Shown piece by piece: positions 13,855 through 20,764 of a stretch of 26,049 nt of DNA. The first letter of the stretch is position 1. Every line of letters starts with the position of its first letter. Source of the DNA: a virus (taxonomy: Duplodnaviria > Heunggongvirae > Uroviricota > Caudoviricetes); the IMG/VR virus record IMGVR_UViG_3300006139_000005, positions 1 through 26,049 of that record; one strand, written 5' to 3'. The position numbers were made by a program, and so were the translations under genes. The notes under the pieces are model-generated. The model saw only the letters and a program-made list of their open reading frames with translations. It was not told where the DNA came from and made no database searches.

Positions 13855-14826
13855 TCACTCCTCCGATCCAGAAAGGTTAAACTCCTTATCCATTTCTTTA
13901 GAGCCAGTCAGAAGATTGTTCAAAGGCCGTGTCATAAATCTGGTAATATATTCTCTCAAATGGTCGTAATCGGCATAGAGCTTCTGATCCTTGTAGAAAT
14001 CGGCCGGACAATGCTCTTCAATATCACGAATCATCACGCCCAAAGGACTCAGCTGCATTTCCGATTCCGCCTTTTTCTTTCTATCCTCAATTTCTGTTGT
14101 AGCAGCCTCAATAAACGCTTTATAAGAATTGGCAAGAGCACCAACGCCAGCTGCTCCGTTCCTAACGCTATTTTGCAGATTTAGCTTCAAATAACAAATA
14201 GAAACATAAAGTTCATCTTGCCGTTTATCCACAGGGGCACCACAGCGCTCTACCCAACTGTCATACTCGCCTTGCAATGTATCATAATCACTATCTGAAA
14301 AACCAAGCCCAAATCTGCGAATTACATCAAGATTTACACTGGTATCATCAGTATCAGATGCTTCATTTGGCATCTCGGCCTCCGCTTCAAATCGCCGCAC
14401 AAGTGTGTCTGAATAGGTAGAATCTTCACTACTCTGGCGAATATTTAACTTTGAAAAATATCCGCTCATACGATTTCTATTTGCGCTAATCTTTCGTGCA
14501 GCTGCCCAAGCCGTTTCATTTACGCAAAGATCAATAATTTGACAGACACGTTCCATAGCAGCATCCTCATCCTTATCGAAAAATGCTACATTCTCATCAA
14601 ACATCTCAGCTACACATTTTTTGCAGTACACCACATAGCCATTATTCCCTTTGAACAGTGGAGACTTAGACACATTGAAATTTCCATCCTGTTTCGGATA
14701 CTTATGACCACAACGGGGACAGCGATACACTTCATCGCTCACAACACGCGGCTCTGCTTCACTTGGCTTTGCGTCTTTATTAACTTTTTGTGCGACTGTT
14801 TTTTTCAGTTGTTTCTTTGCCGCCAT
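13855..14826 (-). CDS. Zinc-finger protein, candidate terminase small subunit (YonG-like)
   Basis: CPRC...CKKC motif; directly upstream of the large terminase; SD AAAGGAGG supports ATG at 14826. Confidence 0.65.
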   Translation of the reverse strand: MAAKKQLKKTVAQKVNKDAKPSEAEPRVVSDEVYRCPRCGHKYPKQDGNFNVSKSPLFKGNNGYVVYCKKCVAEMFDENVAFFDKDEDAAMERVCQIIDLCVNETAWAAARKISANRNRMSGYFSKLNIRQSSEDSTYSDTLVRRFEAEAEMPNEASDTDDTSVNLDVIRRFGLGFSDSDYDTLQGEYDSWVERCGAPVDKRQDELYVSICYLKLNLQNSVRNGAAGVGALANSYKAFIEAATTEIEDRKKKAESEMQLSPLGVMIRDIEEHCPADFYKDQKLYADYDHLREYITRFMTRPLNNLLTGSKEMDKEFNLSGSEE

Positions 14827-14849
14827 GCTGCGACCTCCTTTCAAATATG

Positions 14850-14883
14850 ACAAAACCTCAGCGATTCTAAGCCGCTGAGGTTT
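14850..14883 (-). terminator. Intrinsic terminator closing the RNA island
   Basis: AAACCTCAGCG-9 nt loop-CGCTGAGGTTT followed by TG, ~20 nt downstream of the last tRNA. Confidence 0.75.
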
Positions 14884-14902
14884 CAGTCATTATGATATTT
14901 TG

Positions 14903-14978
14903 TGGTGCGCCAGAAGGGACTCGAACCCTCGACCTACCGCTTAAAAGGCGGTTATTCTACCAGCTGAATTACTGGCAC
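14903..14978 (-). tRNA. tRNA-Lys(UUU)
   Basis: Cloverleaf; anticodon arm ACCGC-CTTTTAA-GCGGT; CCA encoded. Confidence 0.95.
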
Positions 14979-14988
14979 ATATGTATAT

Positions 14989-15054
14989 GAGACACTACCT
15001 GGTTTGACAGTCAGGATTTGATTTTGAAGTCAAATAAATTGCTGTACGTGTCTC
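14989..15054 (-). ncRNA. Stem+ACAGCAA element, copy D (skipping-rope-like)
   Basis: GAGACAC-GTACAGCAAT...GTGTCTC; one of four copies. The family name is from recall and unverified. Confidence 0.55.
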
Positions 15055-15056
15055 AA

Positions 15057-15275
15057 GGTACACTTTCTCAGGCTCACAAAGTCCCGTTGCGGTATACAAG
15101 CGCCCCGCCTCCTGATCGGGTTGTCGTGTTGCTCTCCACGATGTCACAGTTACTATCGGTCTGTATTCCGTCCGACTTTCACGGAGGGGAGCGACCCCGC
15201 ATATTGTTGCTTACCCTTCCTCATATGTACTCCGGGCCAGAGCTGCGCGTTCTTTCGGGACTACGAGGATGTTCC
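15057..15275 (-). ncRNA. Unassigned structured RNA, ~220 nt
   Basis: Closing stem AGUCCCG/CGGGACU (15256-15262 with 15080-15086) and several internal hairpins; no credible ORF. Confidence 0.55.
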
Positions 15276-15276
15276 G

Positions 15277-15369
15277 TGGCGGCGGAAGTAGGACTCGAAC
15301 CCACAAGCCATTCATCACGGCCAACAGTTTTCAAGACTGCTCCCCGCACCTACTGGGGTCAATTCCGCC
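15277..15369 (-). tRNA. tRNA-Ser(UGA)
   Basis: GCAGT-CTTGAAA-ACTGT; long variable arm; G73; CCA encoded; atypical D-arm. Confidence 0.9.
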
Positions 15370-15372
15370 ATA

Positions 15373-15461
15373 TGGTAGGGGAGGTGGGAGTTGAACCCAC
15401 TCAGCGCATAAGCGCAACGATTTTACAGACCGCCCCGACTCTCCAACTTCGGCGCTCCCCT
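15373..15461 (-). tRNA. tRNA-Tyr(GUA)
   Basis: GCGGT-CTGTAAA-ATCGT; long variable arm; CCA encoded. Confidence 0.9.
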
Positions 15462-15473
15462 ATACGTATATTG

Positions 15474-15802
15474 TAAAAGTGACTCCGCTCCCAGCCTCAC
15501 CACACACCTTTACGCTGTGCCATATTGCCACCACAACTCAGCCTCATGTGCAAAGCCGTAGTCCTTTCAGCCTTTCTATCGAGGAGCAGGGGGATTAGTG
15601 TTTCCCGTCTTAGTCTACCAAGGATTTCGATGTAACAAGTACACCACACTTGCGGCTACGGCCCAGGCAGATTTCAGCCTACCTTTGGTGCTACAACGGC
15701 ACCTAACCGCTATTTCTTTTACGCCCAGTCACTCCATCATTGAAGGCCACCTTGGATTCCGTGCGCCACTCACACACGTGATATGTTATCTCAATCGGGC
15801 GA
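15474..15802 (-). ncRNA. Unassigned structured RNA, ~330 nt
   Basis: Long-range stems and many hairpins (see findings); GC-rich; no credible ORF. Confidence 0.55.
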
Positions 15803-15803
15803 T

Positions 15804-15879
15804 TGGAGCTGACACAGAGACTTGAACTCTGAACCTATTGCTTACGAGGCAACCGCTCTACCATTGGAGCTATGTCAGC
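15804..15879 (-). tRNA. tRNA-Thr(CGU)
   Basis: GTTGC-CTCGTAA-GCAAT; CCA encoded. Confidence 0.93.
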
Positions 15880-15882
15880 ATT

Positions 15883-15956
15883 TGGCAGGGGCTGAAAGAC
15901 TTGAACTCTCACCAACAGTTTTGGAGACTGTCATGCTACCATTACACCAAACCCCT
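15883..15956 (-). tRNA. tRNA-Trp(CCA)
   Basis: ACAGT-CTCCAAA-ACTGT; A1-U72 pair; G73; CCA encoded. Confidence 0.93.
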
Positions 15957-15959
15957 ATA

Positions 15960-16035
15960 TGGCGACCTCGGCGGGTTTTGATCCCGCTACCTCCAGCGTG
16001 ACAGGCTGGCGCTCTCCCGATTGAGCTACGAGGCC
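15960..16035 (-). tRNA. tRNA-Asp(GUC)
   Basis: CCAGC-CTGTCAC-GCTGG; T-loop is ATCAAAA (A54); CCA encoded. Confidence 0.9.
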
Positions 16036-16038
16036 ATG

Positions 16039-16115
16039 TGGTGATGCCGGAGAGGTTTGAACTCTCAAATTCCGCCTTGAAAGGGCGGTGACTCTACCAA
16101 TTCGTCCACGGCACC
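16039..16115 (-). tRNA. tRNA-Glu(UUC)
   Basis: CCGCC-CTTTCAA-GGCGG; CCA encoded. Confidence 0.93.
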
Positions 16116-16120
16116 ATATT

Positions 16121-16357
16121 CTATTCATTCCACGGAATCAAATCATCAAGGTCAAGTGGAGAATTTGCTGTTGCAATCTTGATAAAACCATTCTCTGTAA
16201 CTTTCCAAAGAGTAAATTTCATCTTTTCTAAATTCTGACTAATCTGATAGTTCAGCCCATTCTTAGTTGTGCAGGACACACCTGGCCCATTTTCAGAAGA
16301 CGGAATCTTCTTTACAATCTTTTCAGATACATCTTTAACCACAGCAGACTTCCGCAC
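16121..16357 (-). CDS. Small hypothetical protein inside the tRNA array
   Basis: SD GAGGTG 9 nt before GTG at 16357; the ORF fills the gap between the two tRNA-Glu genes. Confidence 0.65.
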   Translation of the reverse strand: MRKSAVVKDVSEKIVKKIPSSENGPGVSCTTKNGLNYQISQNLEKMKFTLWKVTENGFIKIATANSPLDLDDLIPWNE

Positions 16358-16379
16358 CGTAAACAGCACCTCTTTTCAT

Positions 16380-16456
16380 TGGTACTCCCAGCGAGGCTCG
16401 AACTCGCATTGCTGGCTTGAGAGGCCAGCTTCCTATGCCAATTAGAAGATGGGAGC
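16380..16456 (-). tRNA. tRNA-Glu(CUC)
   Basis: CTGGC-CTCTCAA-GCCAG; CCA encoded. Confidence 0.93.
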
Positions 16457-16461
16457 ATATT

Positions 16462-16536
16462 TGGCAGGGGTGACTGGACTCGAACCAGTGATGCGGGAGT
16501 CAAAGTCCCGTGCCGTAACCGCTTGGCTACACCCCC
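16462..16536 (-). tRNA. tRNA-Gln(UUG)
   Basis: CGGGA-CTTTGAC-TCCCG; G73; CCA encoded. Confidence 0.93.
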
Positions 16537-16545
16537 ATATTAAGT

Positions 16546-16622
16546 TGGCACGCCAAGTAGGACTCGAACCCACGGCACAGAGATTAGAAATCTCTTGCTC
16601 TATCCAACTGAGCTATTGGCGC
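16546..16622 (-). tRNA. tRNA-Arg(UCU)
   Basis: AGAGA-TTTCTAA-TCTCT; CCA encoded. Confidence 0.93.
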
Positions 16623-16625
16623 ATA

Positions 16626-16700
16626 TGGAGATACCGATAGGATTTGAACCCACGATCCTGGGTTTGCAGCCCAGAGCCTTACCATCTTGGCTACGGTATC
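16626..16700 (-). tRNA. tRNA-Cys(GCA)
   Basis: CTGGG-CTGCAAA-CCCAG; U73; CCA encoded. Confidence 0.93.
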
Positions 16701-16816
16701 ATAACGGGCCTAACAGCGTGTATCGTTGCCTTACACAATCACTGTTCCCGCTCTTTTGACAGAGCGTGTCAGGGTTTCTGGTTTGCCCTCCGCCTACTAT
16801 AAACCCTTGTTCGGCT

Positions 16817-16903
16817 TGGTGCTGGTGGTGGGAGTTGAACCCACACACTGTTGCCAGTAGCGGATTTTGAGTCCACCGCGTCTGCCAATTCCACCACACC
16901 AGC
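16817..16903 (-). tRNA. tRNA-Leu(CAA)
   Basis: GTGGA-CTCAAAA-TCCGC; long variable arm; CCA encoded. Confidence 0.95.
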
Positions 16904-16912
16904 ATAAATTAC

Positions 16913-16976
16913 GGGACACATTTTTGAGCTATCAATTAAAAGTTGATTTCATGTGTGAAGTTGCTGTTAGTGCCCC
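16913..16976 (-). ncRNA. Stem+ACAGCAA element, copy C (skipping-rope-like)
   Basis: GGGGCAC-TAACAGCAA...GTGTCCC. Confidence 0.55.
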
Positions 16977-16979
16977 TTG

Positions 16980-17055
16980 TGGAGTGGGAAACGGGAATTG
17001 AACCCGCAACATCCGACTTGGAAGGACGGCGCTCTACCAGTTGAGCTATTCCCAC
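16980..17055 (-). tRNA. tRNA-Gly(UCC)
   Basis: CCGTC-CTTCCAA-GTCGG; U73; CCA encoded. Confidence 0.93.
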
Positions 17056-17210
17056 AGATAATCAACTCGCAGCGTTGATCATGCTGCCAACTCTCCGCTG
17101 TTGGGGCGCGGCGGTTTCACTTGAAACCTGCTTAAAGTTTTCACGGCCAAATGTGAACATTTCCATTTCCCATTAAGTTTACAGTCTCTTCTCTGTTTGT
17201 GGGACGGGCC

Positions 17211-17286
17211 TGGTTGCGGGGGTGGGACTCGAACCCACGATTTCCAACTTATGAGGATGGCGAGATGACCACTTCTCTACCCCGCA
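17211..17286 (-). tRNA. tRNA-Met(CAU), initiator-like acceptor stem
   Basis: TGCGGGG/CCCCGCA-ACCA; anticodon arm CCATC-CTCATAA-GTTGG. Whether it is fMet, elongator Met or Ile2 is uncertain. Confidence 0.85.
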
Positions 17287-17362
17287 TTATATAGACGGTT
17301 CTAAAAACAGAATCGGTGTAAACACCAACATCTTGGAAACTCCCCGTCATGTTTTGAGCCTC

Positions 17363-17438
17363 TGGCTGGCCCGGAGGGACTTGAACCCCCGACATACGGA
17401 TTAACAGTCCGCCGTTCTACCAACTGGACTACGAGCCA
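17363..17438 (-). tRNA. tRNA-Asn(GUU)
   Basis: GCGGA-CTGTTAA-TCCGT; G73; CCA encoded. Confidence 0.95.
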
Positions 17439-17454
17439 ATATTTTAATTTTTAC

Positions 17455-17555
17455 GAGACGCATCAATGAAAAAAGTGAAAATAGGAAATGTCTGTGCAAG
17501 ACTAAAAAATTGTAAAATTTGATAGAATTGTTTTTGAAATTGCTGTTAGCGTCTC
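17455..17555 (-). ncRNA. Stem+ACAGCAA element, copy B (skipping-rope-like)
   Basis: GAGACGC-TAACAGCAAT...GCGTCTC enclosing a long AU-rich loop. Confidence 0.55.
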
Positions 17556-17558
17556 AAC

Positions 17559-17618
17559 GGGACACGTTTTCTTCTTTTACCCAAAAAAAGTTTTTGTTGA
17601 GATTGCTGTTAGTGTCCC
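17559..17618 (-). ncRNA. Stem+ACAGCAA element, copy A (skipping-rope-like)
   Basis: GGGACAC-TAACAGCAAT...GTGTCCC. Confidence 0.55.
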
Positions 17619-17622
17619 AGAA

Positions 17623-17696
17623 TGGTAGAAGATGTCGGACTCGAACCGCTATTCCTACTCCCAAAGCAGGCGTGTTACCATTACACTACATCCTCT
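17623..17696 (-). tRNA. Atypical tRNA-Pro(UGG)
   Basis: CCTGC-TTTGGGA-GTAGG is a Pro-type arm, but the T-stem has two mismatches and the acceptor starts with A; CCA encoded. Confidence 0.7.
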
Positions 17697-17699
17697 ATA

Positions 17700-18116
17700 T
17701 GGTGGAGCCGGCGGGAATCGAACCCGCGTCCGAAATTCCTACATGAACAAGACCTTCTTACGCAATAGACGATTTTTCAGCGTTGCTTTTCAGCGGGCGC
17801 TTGCGATACCGTCAAATCTGTCCCAGGGCGCACAATGGTTTGCACACCTCCACCACCTTGTCTCTTTTAGCAGTAACAAGGAAAACTGCGCATTTGGACG
17901 TATCTTTACCTCATACATTCACCCGTCCAGTAGGTATGTCGTTTTGGAATCCTACCGTCAATCAGGCGGCAACCCTCTCAGCCACAAAAGCAGCAAAAGC
18001 GGGGTGGATCATTACAACAGTTTCAGAGTTGTCATTTCATTTTTTGTATGCCTTTAGGCGGTCATCTACCTGCGAGTCTTGCACTCTCAAAACCCCGTCG
18101 AATCCTTTACGGCCCC
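17700..18116 (-). ncRNA. ssrA: tmRNA
   Basis: 5' GGGGCCGTAAAGGATTCGAC; 3' T-arm GCGGG-TTCGATT-CCCGC then CGGCTCCACCA with G3:U70; internal tag frame ending GCC GCC TGA. Confidence 0.95.
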
Positions 18117-18143
18117 ATATGAAGTTGTCAAAGTGCCTATGCG

Positions 18144-18219
18144 TGGTCGGGGCAGAAAGAATTGAACTTCCGACATAACGATTATCAGTCGTGTGCTCTA
18201 CCAACTGAGCTATACCCCG
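18144..18219 (-). tRNA. tRNA-Ile(GAU)
   Basis: CACGA-CTGATAA-TCGTT; CCA encoded. Confidence 0.93.
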
Positions 18220-18334
18220 TTATCAACCGTGCGTCCGTAGAACCTCATCCATGGCTGATAGGCTTCTGACAGAGATAGCAGCTAAGTAATGAGCTGAACC
18301 ACACAAACGTCAGCATAGCCAACACGGTATGATC

Positions 18335-18410
18335 TGGTGGAACCAGGGAGGATTGAACTCCCGACCTCCTGCTTGCAAGGCAGGCGCTCTACCAACTGAG
18401 CTACGGCCCC
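18335..18410 (-). tRNA. tRNA-Ala(UGC)
   Basis: CCTGC-CTTGCAA-GCAGG; G3:U70; CCA encoded. Confidence 0.95.
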
Positions 18411-18434
18411 GTATCAGCGATTTTGTTCGCTACT

Positions 18435-19051
18435 TTGAAGAACTTAATCTCTCAATCACACTTATTACTGGGTCTTCACCCTACCTCCATTATCTTCTTT
18501 GTTGTTCCGCCACCAGGGAGACAAGTCTGAGCTTTGGGGAGCGACCCCTAACTTCTTGCCCCAGCGCATCAGCGCCATATCCTGCACGGGATTGTCTACC
18601 CGCAAATTTCACCGTTCATTCAGAAAATTTCATTATTGACCTGTATAGTCTACATACTTTCAAAATGAAAAGATGTTTTCAATCTGTCCTACGGCTACTT
18701 TAACCAGCGACTTTCGTTATAGCCGAATTTCTTCGGCATCAAGACAGAAGCACATTATTGGTTTTACCTCCGTATAATCGGCTACCACCCCGATATACTG
18801 CAAGGCTTATTCTCCACATGGAGCGTCTATTGCTGCGCCCGAAAGTTCTGTGCGTTACAAAGCGACAACTCTTAGCGACATACGTTTTTCTTGGCGGTTT
18901 CCGCCTCCTCGCCCTGCATCGCTGCATGACGACGATCCTCCCTGCAAGGTATCCCTCGCAGTTCCTACCGAAATTACCATATGCCTCGGAGTGCTGACAC
19001 ACTTTGTTCACCGAGTTAGTAATAAGCATGATTCAAAGATTAAGTTTTCAA
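18435..19051 (-). ncRNA. Large structured RNA, GOLLD-like (ROOL is the alternative)
   Basis: The two ends pair over ~31 bp and there are many internal hairpins. The 3' half has motifs I recall from GOLLD (CUGAAUGAACGGUGAAA, GGGGUCGCUCCCC, CUCAGACUU, GGGUGAAGACCC). The setting in a phage tRNA array fits both families. Confidence 0.72.
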
Positions 19052-19057
19052 GGAACA

Positions 19058-19133
19058 TGGAGCTGATGACAGGGGTCGAACCTGCGACCTACTGATTACA
19101 AATCAGTCGTTCTACCAACTGAACTACATCAGC
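19058..19133 (-). tRNA. tRNA-Thr(UGU)
   Basis: ACTGA-TTTGTAA-TCAGT; CCA encoded. Confidence 0.95.
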
Positions 19134-19159
19134 ATTGATTTTGTTCGTCGCTATGGTCA

Positions 19160-19188
19160 TACTATACCACAGGTTTCAGTGGATGTCA
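19160..19188 (-). promoter_or_regulatory. SigmaA-type promoter for the RNA island
   Basis: TTGACA-17 nt-TATAGT on the minus strand, with TG just upstream of the -10 box; ~26 nt before tRNA-Thr. Confidence 0.85.
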
Positions 19189-19209
19189 ATAGCGACGAAC
19201 AAAATTTTT

Positions 19210-19527
19210 TTATTTTTTTTCGGTTTTAGCCAGCAAGCTAAGTTTGTTGGGGTTTTGTGTCTTCACAGCGTCTTTTAAGTTGTCACCAGGACGAAATACC
19301 ACAACCTGGTAATCATCTATCCGCTTTTGCTCTCGTGTATGGATATCACGGACAAGGCTTCCCTTTCTCTTCTTCACTTCAAAAGTCCCGAACCCTCGGA
19401 TTGTTACCTTTTCTCCCTTAGTCAGCGCCTCAGCAATGACGCGAAACACATCATTGATAACAGCTCCAGCCTGGTTCTTATAGTAGTCCATCTCAGACAA
19501 TGCAAGGACAAGATCGTTCTTGAGCAC
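19210..19527 (-). CDS. hup: HU family DNA-binding protein
   Basis: GEKVTIRGFGTFEVKKRK and VVFRPGDNLK signatures; SD AGGAGTGA supports GTG at 19527. Confidence 0.9.
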   Translation of the reverse strand: MLKNDLVLALSEMDYYKNQAGAVINDVFRVIAEALTKGEKVTIRGFGTFEVKKRKGSLVRDIHTREQKRIDDYQVVVFRPGDNLKDAVKTQNPNKLSLLAKTEKK

Positions 19528-19537
19528 AAAATCACTC

Positions 19538-20764
19538 CTAACCAAGTTTAATCTGATAATAGGCATCGGCACCAATTCCAGGTTTGAACACCATCATCAG
19601 TTGACCAGGCGTAGAATACAACCGCTTTCCATTTGCGTATTCATCAGTTCCACAAAGGCTTCTGACGATCATACTGTCAATTCCAAGTTCTTCAAACTCT
19701 TCCTTGTGGTGTTTATCGGCAAGAATTACATAATCAATTCCAGAGCCGTATTTCTTTACAAAGAGAGTATTCAATGTTCTACCAGCGTTTTTCACACTGT
19801 CAAGATCGCCATGTGTAGCGCAGATTTGATATCCACACACATTAAAATATAAGAACTCGTAATACTCCGCCTCTGGGAATTGCACATCGCCTCTGTCGCC
19901 CAACCGCTGCTCCAGCCACCAGGGAATCAAGCGCTCCATGTTATCAGCATGGATGCTATCTTGCTTATTCTGCACAGTGCGCAGATGATTCCCGTATGTA
20001 GCGTGTACGACGGTTTCTTCTACTGTGTCCGCTAAGGCATTCACTGCCTGAGCAATAATTTCAGAGACTTGCATCACCTGGTCACAAACAAGTTCTTCAG
20101 ACGCTACTCGTGCGCTGGTATGAATGGCTCCATGGGCCATATCGCCAAGCAGAAGGATATGCAGTTTGCGACATCTATGCAGCTTGATTCGCTCAATCGC
20201 AGTCTCTACTAAATGTTCTACACGGCGGCGACAAACCTCTGTATTATACCGTTCCCAAATATTATCCGTTGTCATTCCGTAGTGCCAATCAGCAAATACA
20301 ATGACAGCTTCATTATCGTCATAGGTATAAACAACCGACTTATCTACACACAACGGTTCAGTCTCATTTAGGATATTTGCAGCCTCAACAAGACGATCTT
20401 CCAGATTCTCAGATCTACCAATCCGATCTACCAATTTGTTGAACTCACGTCGTTGATCAAAGAATCGTTTTGCTTCCTTCCTTGCCTCTGCAATCTTCAC
20501 ATCCAGTTCAGAAAGATACGCCTCTTTGTCAGGCCGTCCATCAGCAGCATATTTGCGCTTAAAATATTGCGCAACAGCATAACCAGAGTATGGTGTGACA
20601 GACACCGCTTTTCTGAGGCTGTCGCGGTGACAATCCAGTTGAGCCGCCTCTACAATATCTTCCCAATCCAAGTCGTCCGGTTTCTGTTCCATCTTAATCT
20701 CGATGAGCCGAAGACCATACTCATAAAGATCCTCCCCTTCTTTTCGTTCATACTTTGGGTTCAC
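19538..20764 (-). CDS. Calcineurin-like metallophosphoesterase (YonJ-like)
   Basis: Metal-ligand motifs DWH, GD, GNH, HGD and DKHH; SD GAGGTG supports GTG at 20764. Confidence 0.8.
   Translation of the reverse strand: MNPKYERKEGEDLYEYGLRLIEIKMEQKPDDLDWEDIVEAAQLDCHRDSLRKAVSVTPYSGYAVAQYFKRKYAADGRPDKEAYLSELDVKIAEARKEAKRFFDQRREFNKLVDRIGRSENLEDRLVEAANILNETEPLCVDKSVVYTYDDNEAVIVFADWHYGMTTDNIWERYNTEVCRRRVEHLVETAIERIKLHRCRKLHILLLGDMAHGAIHTSARVASEELVCDQVMQVSEIIAQAVNALADTVEETVVHATYGNHLRTVQNKQDSIHADNMERLIPWWLEQRLGDRGDVQFPEAEYYEFLYFNVCGYQICATHGDLDSVKNAGRTLNTLFVKKYGSGIDYVILADKHHKEEFEELGIDSMIVRSLCGTDEYANGKRLYSTPGQLMMVFKPGIGADAYYQIKLG

Follow-up and report, generated by a model that had tools for sequence, protein, structure and literature searches.

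The window examined here is a stretch of 26,049 nucleotides (nt), positions 1 to 26,049 of the 117-kb viral record IMGVR_UViG_3300006139_000005 (completeness 88%), and its central feature is an RNA operon on the minus strand (Table 1). The operon comprises 19 tRNA genes, a transfer-messenger RNA (tmRNA), a full-length ROOL RNA, four hairpins sharing the motif ACAGCAA, structured RNAs lodged in most of the long spacers and a gene for a small protein, such that about eleven non-tRNA RNAs, here called passengers, stand beside the tRNAs. It is fairly probable, in our estimation, that the operon is transcribed as one precursor which is cut by the tRNA-processing enzymes of the host, and that it serves as a kit for translation and RNA quality control during growth of the phage.

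The frame of the operon is simple. The promoter at its right end is the sole strong match in 5.2 kb (14500-19700) and is kept in 11 related loci, and a scan found one long terminator, at the left end, which is kept in close relatives. All 19 tRNAs called by ARAGORN (14903-19133) lie on the minus strand and serve 17 amino acids, those for His, Phe and Val being absent. The 3' CCA is encoded in each of the 19, and 16 of them have a T at position -1, in keeping with bacterial RNase P. At eight junctions, neighbouring tRNAs are just 3-9 nt apart, with spacers of 3, 9 and 5 nt in the run Cys-Arg-Gln-Glu(CUC) and of 3 nt throughout the run Glu(UUC)-Asp-Trp-Thr(CGU). Elsewhere, passenger structures begin 0-7 nt past a tRNA CCA and stop 3-16 nt ahead of the next tRNA; the distance from the preceding CCA is 27 nt for the tmRNA and 6-18 nt for ROOL. 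Upstream of the operon lies a gene for HU (PF00216, 1.1e-22), and downstream are a phrog_3314 gene, the large terminase (TerL) and the portal gene. An earlier note made from the letters of the DNA (the sequence-only reading) had proposed this layout, from the single promoter and terminator, the 19 CCA-encoding tRNAs and the RNAs starting close behind a CCA to the position between HU and the packaging genes, and the motif scans and ARAGORN bear it out.

Table 1. Features of the RNA operon in the direction of transcription, followed by the locus of the DUF2828 protein; positions are those of the window unless the record is named.
Feature	Position	Strand	Remarks
RNA operon	14851-19205	-	between one strong promoter and one long terminator
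Inverted repeat around promoter	19138-19205	.	perfect, 16-17 bp; downstream arm transcribed as leader
Promoter	19161-19189	-	TTGACA-17 nt-TG-TATAGT; 11/12 matches, extended -10
tRNA-Thr(UGU)	19058-19133	-	ARAGORN, CCA encoded
ROOL RNA	18435-19051	-	Rfam RF03087 match 18451-19039, extended by ~33-bp terminal stem
tRNA-Ala(UGC)	18335-18410	-	ARAGORN
Passenger spI	18220-18334	-	115 nt; ~103-nt multi-branch fold, 7-bp closing stem ~18226-18328
tRNA-Ile(GAU)	18144-18219	-	ARAGORN
tmRNA	17700-18116	-	Rfam RF00023, 92.7 bits (gathering score 47)
tRNA-Pro(UGG)	17623-17696	-	ARAGORN
ACAGCAA-handle hairpin 1	17559-17618	-	stem GGGACAC/GTGTCCC
ACAGCAA-handle hairpin 2	17455-17555	-	stem GAGACGC/GCGTCTC
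tRNA-Asn(GUU)	17363-17438	-	ARAGORN
Passenger spG	17287-17362	-	76 nt; conserved stretches CAAAACAUG and GUUUUUAGAAC
tRNA-Met(CAU)	17211-17286	-	ARAGORN
Passenger spF	17056-17210	-	155 nt; nine helices, three pseudoknotted
tRNA-Gly(UCC)	16980-17055	-	ARAGORN
ACAGCAA-handle hairpin 3	16913-16976	-	stem GGGGCAC/GTGTCCC, one G-U pair
tRNA-Leu(CAA)	16817-16903	-	ARAGORN
Spacer spD	16701-16816	-	116 nt; possible structured RNA
Four-tRNA run	16380-16700	-	Cys(GCA) 16626-16700, Arg(UCU) 16546-16622, Gln(UUG) 16462-16536, Glu(CUC) 16380-16456
Small protein gene	16121-16357	-	78 aa; AAGAGG ribosome-binding site; stop codon 5 nt before next tRNA
Four-tRNA run	15804-16115	-	Glu(UUC) 16039-16115, Asp(GUC) 15960-16035, Trp(CCA) 15883-15956, Thr(CGU) 15804-15879
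Passenger spB	15462-15803	-	342 nt, multi-domain; covariation in relatives
tRNA-Tyr(GUA) and tRNA-Ser(UGA)	15277-15461	-	ARAGORN; Tyr 15373-15461, Ser 15277-15369
Passenger spA core	~15059-15200	-	~140 nt; covariation; within 298-nt spacer spA 14979-15276
ACAGCAA-handle hairpin 4	14989-15054	-	stem GAGACAC/GTGTCTC, linker GT
tRNA-Lys(UUU)	14903-14978	-	ARAGORN; final gene of operon
Intrinsic terminator	14851-14885	-	14-pair stem then T-run; directly before ribosome-binding site of next gene
ACAGCAA module array with DUF2828 gene	record 58860-61849		outside window (loci L240, L241)
DUF2828/DUF7788 gene	record 60290-61849		outside window; 519 aa, Pfam DUF2828 match

Relatives were gathered by a terminase-based search, which yielded 79 viral loci and five bacterial genomes, namely a Butyricicoccus metagenome-assembled genome (MAG), two 'Clostridiaceae' (one of them a MAG), 'Bacterium D16-76' and the complete chromosome of Clostridiales bacterium CCNA10. 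The island stands upstream of TerL with an unchanged tRNA order in dozens of related viral contigs and in the five Clostridia genomes. The source of the window is therefore a temperate phage of Clostridia, and the sequencing runs which contain it are mouse-gut metagenomes. By blastn, 50,697 deposited phage genomes gave scattered tRNA matches and no relative of the island. In the relatives, the gaps between tRNAs either measure about 3 nt or are occupied by one discrete cassette, and the assignment of cassettes to gaps varies between phages, even between those with identical TerL.

Self-closing structured RNAs had been claimed by the sequence-only reading for nearly every longer spacer. For five of the RNAs (spI, spF, spG, spB and the spA core) this was upheld by covariation, judged from the percentage of paired cells relative to slid-partner controls together with the number of compensatory pairs, whereas the 264-nt spacer at 16116-16379 was rejected as an RNA gene and is a conserved protein reading frame. 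Paired cells amounted to 99.3% in spI (14 sequences; at most 45% when slid), 92.2% in spF (16 sequences; at most 42%) and 99.1% in spG (10 unique sequences; at most 31%), with compensatory changes in 11 of 30, 22 of 44 and 7 of 11 pairs, respectively. For spB, compensatory changes affect 19 of 75 pairs among nine sequences, in which entire hairpins are gained or lost; a long-range pairing proposed earlier within it (AGUGACU/AGUCACU) is lost in diverged family members and was given up. The spA core shows 17 of 36 compensatory pairs among nine relatives. Spacer spD may belong here as well, with two compensatory pairs among just five unique relatives. Structural conservation in relatives, on which the sequence-only reading had staked its case, was thus found: most spacers covary, and they are kept across phages whose TerL is merely 66-85% identical. 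Pattern scans for spG, with 16 specified bases, returned matches at about chance level, and only those confirmed by nhmmer were used. When host genomes were searched with a covariance model of spI (R1), matches were confined to the prophage island in two of them, and a further 150 genomes from the order of the host gave none.

None of the spacers was named by Rfam, for which all matches at E<=1 over 14700-19400, apart from tRNAs, tmRNA and ROOL, were artefacts caused by tRNAs; the same threshold applied to seven relatives named no spacer either, except for one 6A RNA match (RF02925, 47.3 bits) within the tRNA array of a more distant relative (L062, 5639-5687).

Among the passengers which do belong to known families, the largest is a ROOL RNA, located between tRNA-Thr and tRNA-Ala. 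It scores 381.9 bits with RF03087 (gathering score 99.1), covers model positions 1-574 of 574 and has counterparts of 384-406 bits in relatives. The sequence-only reading had called it GOLLD-like, an identity which has to be withdrawn, as no GOLLD covariance model matched at E<=1 in 14700-19400. Its fold is stable (z = -6.7), and a terminal duplex of ~33 bp pairs 19051-19018 with ~18470-18435. The tmRNA announced by the same reading is a secure match to RF00023. Its ends are GGGGCCG (5') and ...GGCUCCACCA (3'), the latter closing in a CCA 3 nt before tRNA-Pro, and its tag, (A)DNSETVVMIHPAFAAFVAERVAA at 17962-18033, is unusually long (23 residues) and ends in VAA followed by a stop codon. The IHPAF...VAA core of the tag is kept in relatives, for which ARAGORN calls homologous tags. 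A gene for SmpB (PF01668) was not found in the 88%-complete record, and the partner of this tmRNA is presumed to be the SmpB of the host.

Two small sequence repeats touch ROOL. A 13-nt hairpin, GGGGUCGCUCCCC, is common to ROOL (18536-18548) and the spA core (15186-15198); in the relatives of spA its stem covaries and its loop stays of the UCGC/UCAU form, and the sharing could reflect either chance or a common motif for tertiary contacts. In addition, a shorter version of the leader arm (AGCGACGAACAAAAUC) of the inverted repeat around the promoter is present at 18416-18432, between ROOL and tRNA-Ala, as the small hairpin AGCGAACAAAAUCGCU. The repeat around the promoter may serve as an operator or a processing signal, or it may be a scar left when a cassette was inserted.

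The four repeated elements recognized in the sequence-only reading proved to be ACAGCAA-handle hairpins, each of which consists of a 7-bp stem (consensus RRGRCRC), two linker bases, the ACAGCAA word, a variable A/T-rich interior and the 3' half of the stem, for a total of 60-101 nt. Across relatives, G-C and A-U pairs are exchanged at five of the seven stem positions, while positions 5 and 7 are constant C-G pairs. The same word points to a protein. Directly upstream of the phage gene for a DUF2828/DUF7788 protein, seven same-strand ACAGCAA words occur within 1.4 kb (0.58 expected), and several of these modules stand where a tRNA-like body would have its anticodon arm. DUF2828 is also encoded in each of the five host genomes with a related prophage. 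When an AlphaFold model of the phage protein was compared with the PDB, the 13 best matches were all Ro60/TROVE structures, aligned over the full length with E values of 1e-8 to 4e-4; they include the Ro60 of Thermus phage phiLo, Xenopus and human Ro60 and Deinococcus Rsr. By definition, Y RNAs carry a stem of the 5' and 3' ends around a large variable loop and measure ~80-130 nt (PMC4201824); the hairpins share this layout in their covarying closing stem, variable interiors and length, with a stem shorter than the classical one. The array of seven modules and the Ro60-like predicted fold thus indicate that the ACAGCAA hairpins are probably Y-RNA-like partners of the DUF2828 protein. The model of the bacterial Y RNA YrlA (RF02553) did not match the hairpins, giving only 21 bits (E=0.48) over tRNA-Pro and the end of the tmRNA, and they are therefore described as Y-RNA-like in the way they would work and not as members of that family. 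No paper describing RNA binding by DUF2828 came up in a literature search.

Other identities were considered for the hairpins and rejected from the sequence itself. An integron attC site is ruled out because TAAC lies inside the stem and GT outside, so that no R''/R' pairing is possible. A sigma-54 promoter does not agree with the distance between GG and GC, and many copies have no GG. A CRISPR repeat was dismissed on account of the 40-100 nt that separate the arms, an rrn boxA because it is resembled only in part, and a dead tRNA for lack of D and T arms.

The genomic surroundings of spB likewise suggest a set of partners. Pattern scans located homologues of spB in other phages, some within tRNA arrays, where two of them stop one nucleotide before tRNA-Lys(UUU), and others with no tRNA nearby. 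Those outside tRNA arrays lie on the same strand as RNA-repair genes, at a distance of 0-3 kb (L094, L104, L106, L107, L111). The adjoining genes code for a kinase-phosphatase-Rnl1 fusion, for a kinase and Rnl1, for RlaP and a CCA-adding enzyme, joined in one case by a Thg1-like protein, or for an Rnl2-type ligase. Three different gene orders show this linkage, which makes coincidence within a single lineage an improbable explanation. Two of the loci (L094 and L107) have a Band_7/SPFH gene upstream.

The spA core is distributed still more widely. Its pattern was matched in 109 viral contigs (L147-L213), many of them from much smaller gut phages, and in a set of 42 sequences less than 90% identical, paired cells amount to 97.3% (at most 48% when slid), with 12 of 26 pairs compensatory. 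A tRNA lies within 300 nt upstream in about half of the copies. The family is absent from Rfam 15, and Rfam models run on ten small loci with the motif returned only a neighbouring D12-methyl RNA (RF02950) and a sub-threshold group-II fragment (28 bits). The D12-methyl RNA is near the spA core in seven of these ten loci, six of which also have a match to a tRNA or tRNA-like element; in the two loci compared by coordinates, the spA core stands between the tRNA-like element and the D12-methyl RNA. An identity with RNase P RNA, hinted at by the stretch GAAAGUCCGG, was rejected, the stretch being a local covarying hairpin. The 5' part of the spA spacer, 58 nt at 15219-15276, is unique to this phage; it was considered as a decayed tRNA-Phe and rejected for want of similarity.

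The protein gene within the array also has a family of its own. In relatives the 78-aa frame stays open, its protein sequence is conserved and its place in the array differs; the protein belongs to a family of 83 protein clusters (76-79 aa), all annotated as hypothetical, of which one occurs on 736 contigs. The conserved stretches are ENGPGV.CTT, FTLWK and IATA.SPLDLD.LIPW; neither Pfam nor PHROG gave a match. The larger inter-tRNA cassettes of relatives are protein genes as well, as in L043 (2792-3604, 4351-5280, 6551-6910 and 8145-8519), where they code for a DUF6273 protein after ROOL, for proteins of 309 and 119 aa of unknown function and for an HNH/endonuclease VII-like protein. The last of these could explain the mobility of the cassettes. 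With its own protein gene and the protein cassettes of relatives, the transcript is therefore partly an mRNA.

Expression was assessed from assembled metatranscriptome (Logan) contigs, and parts of the operon without contig cover were treated as uninformative. In three studies, ROOL contigs had a depth of 60-690, compared with 2-5 over the genes on either side and over most of the island. In an RNA that shares its promoter with tRNAs, such an excess over its neighbours implies separate accumulation after transcription. In all three studies the ROOL contigs end at 19010-19013, and their joint span (18485-19012, ~528 nt) excludes the terminal duplex. The mature ROOL of Lactobacillus salivarius measures 507-526 nt by circular rapid amplification of cDNA ends (PMC5643018). 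There is thus a weak hint that the ~33-bp duplex is cut off and that the mature RNA is shorter than the span of the Rfam model. Contigs covered spB in three studies at a depth of 3.6-16.7, and contigs of low depth, partly from relatives, cover the tmRNA, spA, hairpin 2 and the protein gene. A depth of 1,000-2,000 in the bin 18271-18521 was discarded, as it stems from a 52-nt tRNA-Ala contig of other organisms.

From this body of evidence we infer a single transcript, together with its processing enzymes, its cut sites, the binding of proteins to the RNAs and all of the biological roles that follow. A near-consensus promoter of the sigma-A/sigma-70 type would drive a precursor of ~4.3 kb that ends at one intrinsic terminator. 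Host RNase P, by cutting at the 5' end of each tRNA, would set the 3' side of the passenger before it, while a host endonuclease, followed by trimming with a 3' exonuclease, would free the CCA end and with it the 5' side of the next passenger. CCA-encoding tRNAs are poor substrates of RNase Z, and the endonuclease which cuts after the CCA would therefore have to be another enzyme. Terminal helices, closing the passengers within a few nucleotides of the cuts, may shield them from exonucleases, and ROOL may be trimmed further, within its terminal duplex. The tRNAs and the tmRNA would keep the ribosomes running, the ACAGCAA hairpins would most likely dock on the Ro60-like DUF2828 protein of the phage, as Y RNAs do on Ro60, and the spB family may work with tRNA-repair enzymes or regulate them.

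Release of the passengers by tRNA maturation, as put forward in the sequence-only reading, is accordingly to be rated as plausible and partly supported: the one-strand anatomy, the T at -1, the self-closing RNAs and the excess of ROOL speak for it. The spA and spB families also occur in mRNA operons of other phages, away from tRNAs, so that tRNA punctuation would be a convenient route to their expression but not one on which they depend.

Several observations weigh against the account of a processed precursor with partnered passengers. Neither the ends nor the strand of an RNA can be read from assembled contigs, and the contigs which span tRNA-passenger junctions have a depth of 2-4, not above that of the flanking genes, so that carry-over of DNA is possible. 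Taken alone, the 298- and 342-nt spacers have insignificant minimum-free-energy z-scores (-0.84 and -0.46), and their structure was therefore judged from covariation. As for the hairpins, confidence in the DUF2828 model is middling (predicted local distance difference test, pLDDT, 74.5; template modelling, TM, scores of 0.44-0.56), Pfam TROVE matched no protein of the phage record, and the four copies in the operon lie 41 kb from the DUF2828 gene and on the opposite strand. Lastly, no RNase III, RtcB, Rnl1, CCA-adding enzyme or RlaP was found in the 88%-complete record, and the link of spB to repair would therefore rest, in this phage, on enzymes of the host.

A bolder view of the same precursor is that the operon delivers an arsenal of RNAs which defends phage translation against tRNA-cleaving immunity of the host. 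The ACAGCAA handles would then be decoy or adaptor RNAs arming an undescribed Ro60-like DUF2828 particle, spB would be a cofactor, guide or sensor for tRNA-repair enzymes, and these would act along with ROOL cages and the uncatalogued, ribozyme-grade RNAs spF, spA core and spI. We regard this as doubtful, at perhaps one chance among several.

A smaller chance is given to the proposal that the passengers act mainly in cis, as processing aids or insulators which space, fold and protect the tRNA precursor, be it by preventing misfolding of tRNAs, by offering entry sites for nucleases or by blocking Rho, and that they have no work to do in trans. Self-closing RNAs placed exactly between tRNAs would suit such a role, as would array positions that are either tight (~3 nt) or filled by one discrete module, and no targets or partners of the passengers have been demonstrated. 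It is nevertheless improbable, given that long unpaired stretches are highly conserved and that the pseudoknots are too elaborate for spacers. Moreover, spB and spA have family members without a nearby tRNA, the ACAGCAA modules cluster at the gene of the Ro60-like protein, and ROOL forms cages of its own (Kretsch 2025, PMC12286853).

Somewhat less credit still is due to a division of the island into several units, in which ROOL, spB and the protein gene would have promoters and terminators of their own and the tRNA flanks would be incidental. Weak promoter-like sites (9/12) are indeed present within the operon, for instance at 17538-17509 and 18035-18008, yet their number (seven) is that of shuffled sequence (5.8 +/- 2.9) and none exceeds 9/12; the interior of hairpin 2, which holds one of them, is not conserved in relatives, and promoters would not fit into the 0-7 nt between a CCA and the following passenger. 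Within spG, a hairpin and the U-run behind it may act as a partial internal terminator, which counts for separate units and against one precursor. In the same direction point the homologues of spB that are expressed elsewhere without tRNAs and the relatives in which ROOL comes straight after the promoter.

Hardly credible is the view that the spacers are decaying remnants (dead tRNAs, recombination scars) and the hairpin repeats DNA-level sites of cassette shuffling, as the mosaic array even between phages with identical TerL, the HNH-like gene in the arrays of relatives and a tRNA fragment enclosed by the hairpin of one relative might suggest, for compensatory changes preserve 92-99% of pairs across phages, the stems vary only by G-C/A-U exchange with G-U intermediates, a pattern typical of RNA helices, a decayed tRNA-Phe was rejected for the 5' part of spA and the elements are transcribed; for the covarying RNAs this view is already largely refuted.

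The processed-precursor reading places the island within a kind of system that is already known, namely that of the T4 species 1 and 2 RNAs and of ROOL and GOLLD in tRNA islands. The tRNA cluster of bacteriophage T4 contains eight tRNAs and two stable RNAs, 'species 1' and 'species 2' (rnaC, rnaD), whose function is unknown and which are transcribed with the tRNAs and released from the precursor by tRNA-processing enzymes of the host. Both clusters combine phage tRNAs and non-tRNA passengers, which in the present operon are co-oriented and tightly packed between one set of conserved promoter and terminator motifs. They differ in content, as the eight tRNAs and two passengers of T4 compare with 19 tRNAs, a tmRNA, ROOL, about nine other RNAs and a protein gene here; the passengers here also come from other families, and the host is a Firmicute of the Clostridium type with a different set of RNases. 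The island may thus be seen as the T4 design on a larger scale.

ROOL and GOLLD are found in phages and prophages near tRNAs, and co-transcription of ROOL with tRNAs was suggested by Weinberg 2017 (PMC5737381). In common with those systems, a full-length ROOL lies next to tRNAs in a phage, and the RNA is abundant both here and in L. salivarius (Cousin 2017, PMC5643018). Here, in contrast, it is one of about eleven non-tRNA RNAs and has an extra terminal duplex of ~33 bp, seemingly missing from the abundant RNA. The likeness of the hairpins to Y RNAs extends to their small size (60-100 nt), to the closing stem around a large and variable interior (Chen 2014, PMC4201824), to the many copies beside the gene of a protein with a ring-shaped, Ro60-like predicted fold, and to the tRNA-like bodies in which some are set, which may be compared with the tRNA-mimicking YrlA. 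A phage Ro60 has a precedent in that of Thermus phage phiLo (PMC12135203). The differences are that the protein belongs to DUF2828/DUF7788 and not to Pfam TROVE, that the YrlA model leaves the RNAs unmatched, and that the hallmark here is a 7-bp stem followed by single-stranded ACAGCAA, with four copies in a tRNA operon.

Release of RNAs by way of linked tRNAs is known from the polycistronic transcripts of mitochondria, the tRNA-miRNA genes of murine gammaherpesvirus 68 (MHV68), the tRNA-snoRNA genes of plants and the 3' external transcribed spacer (3'ETS) of leuZ in E. coli. In these cases, as proposed here, RNase P and 3' nucleases are drawn to the tRNA structures of a polycistronic precursor, and what lies between the tRNAs becomes functional RNA. 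Those systems free mRNAs, rRNAs, microRNAs (miRNAs), small nucleolar RNAs (snoRNAs) or a sponge RNA, whereas a bacterial virus with large folded RNAs would be at work here, and with CCA encoded in all its tRNAs, cutting at the 3' side would probably fall to an enzyme other than RNase Z. The RNA-repair toolkits of phages are said to be the subject of a 2021 study by Iyer et al. In other phages, homologues of spB stand beside genes for a kinase, Rnl1/Rnl2, RlaP, CCA-adding and Thg1-like enzymes, while the phage studied here has the spB RNA and, in its 88%-complete record, none of those enzymes. The literature searched describes no RNA component of such toolkits.

The clusters of tRNAs in phages are usually read as aids to codon usage or as spares against defences that cut tRNAs. 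The present operon adds scale to what is known, with about eleven non-tRNA RNAs in one unit, and illustrates that a single tRNA transcription unit can carry as many other RNAs, mostly of conserved families outside Rfam 15. Two of the passenger families gain candidate partners that can be tested, namely the Ro60-like DUF2828 protein for the hairpins, and ligase, kinase, CCA-adding and Thg1-like enzymes for spB. ROOL, of which the cage structure is known and the function is not, is placed in a defined and conserved genetic setting. Related prophages reside in cultured Clostridia (Clostridiales bacterium CCNA10, Clostridiaceae strain 9 and Bacterium D16-76), which makes the system open to experiment. 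If the passengers are indeed released by tRNA processing, no natural bacterial counterpart of the tRNA arrays by which engineers express multiple guide RNAs would be richer than this island.

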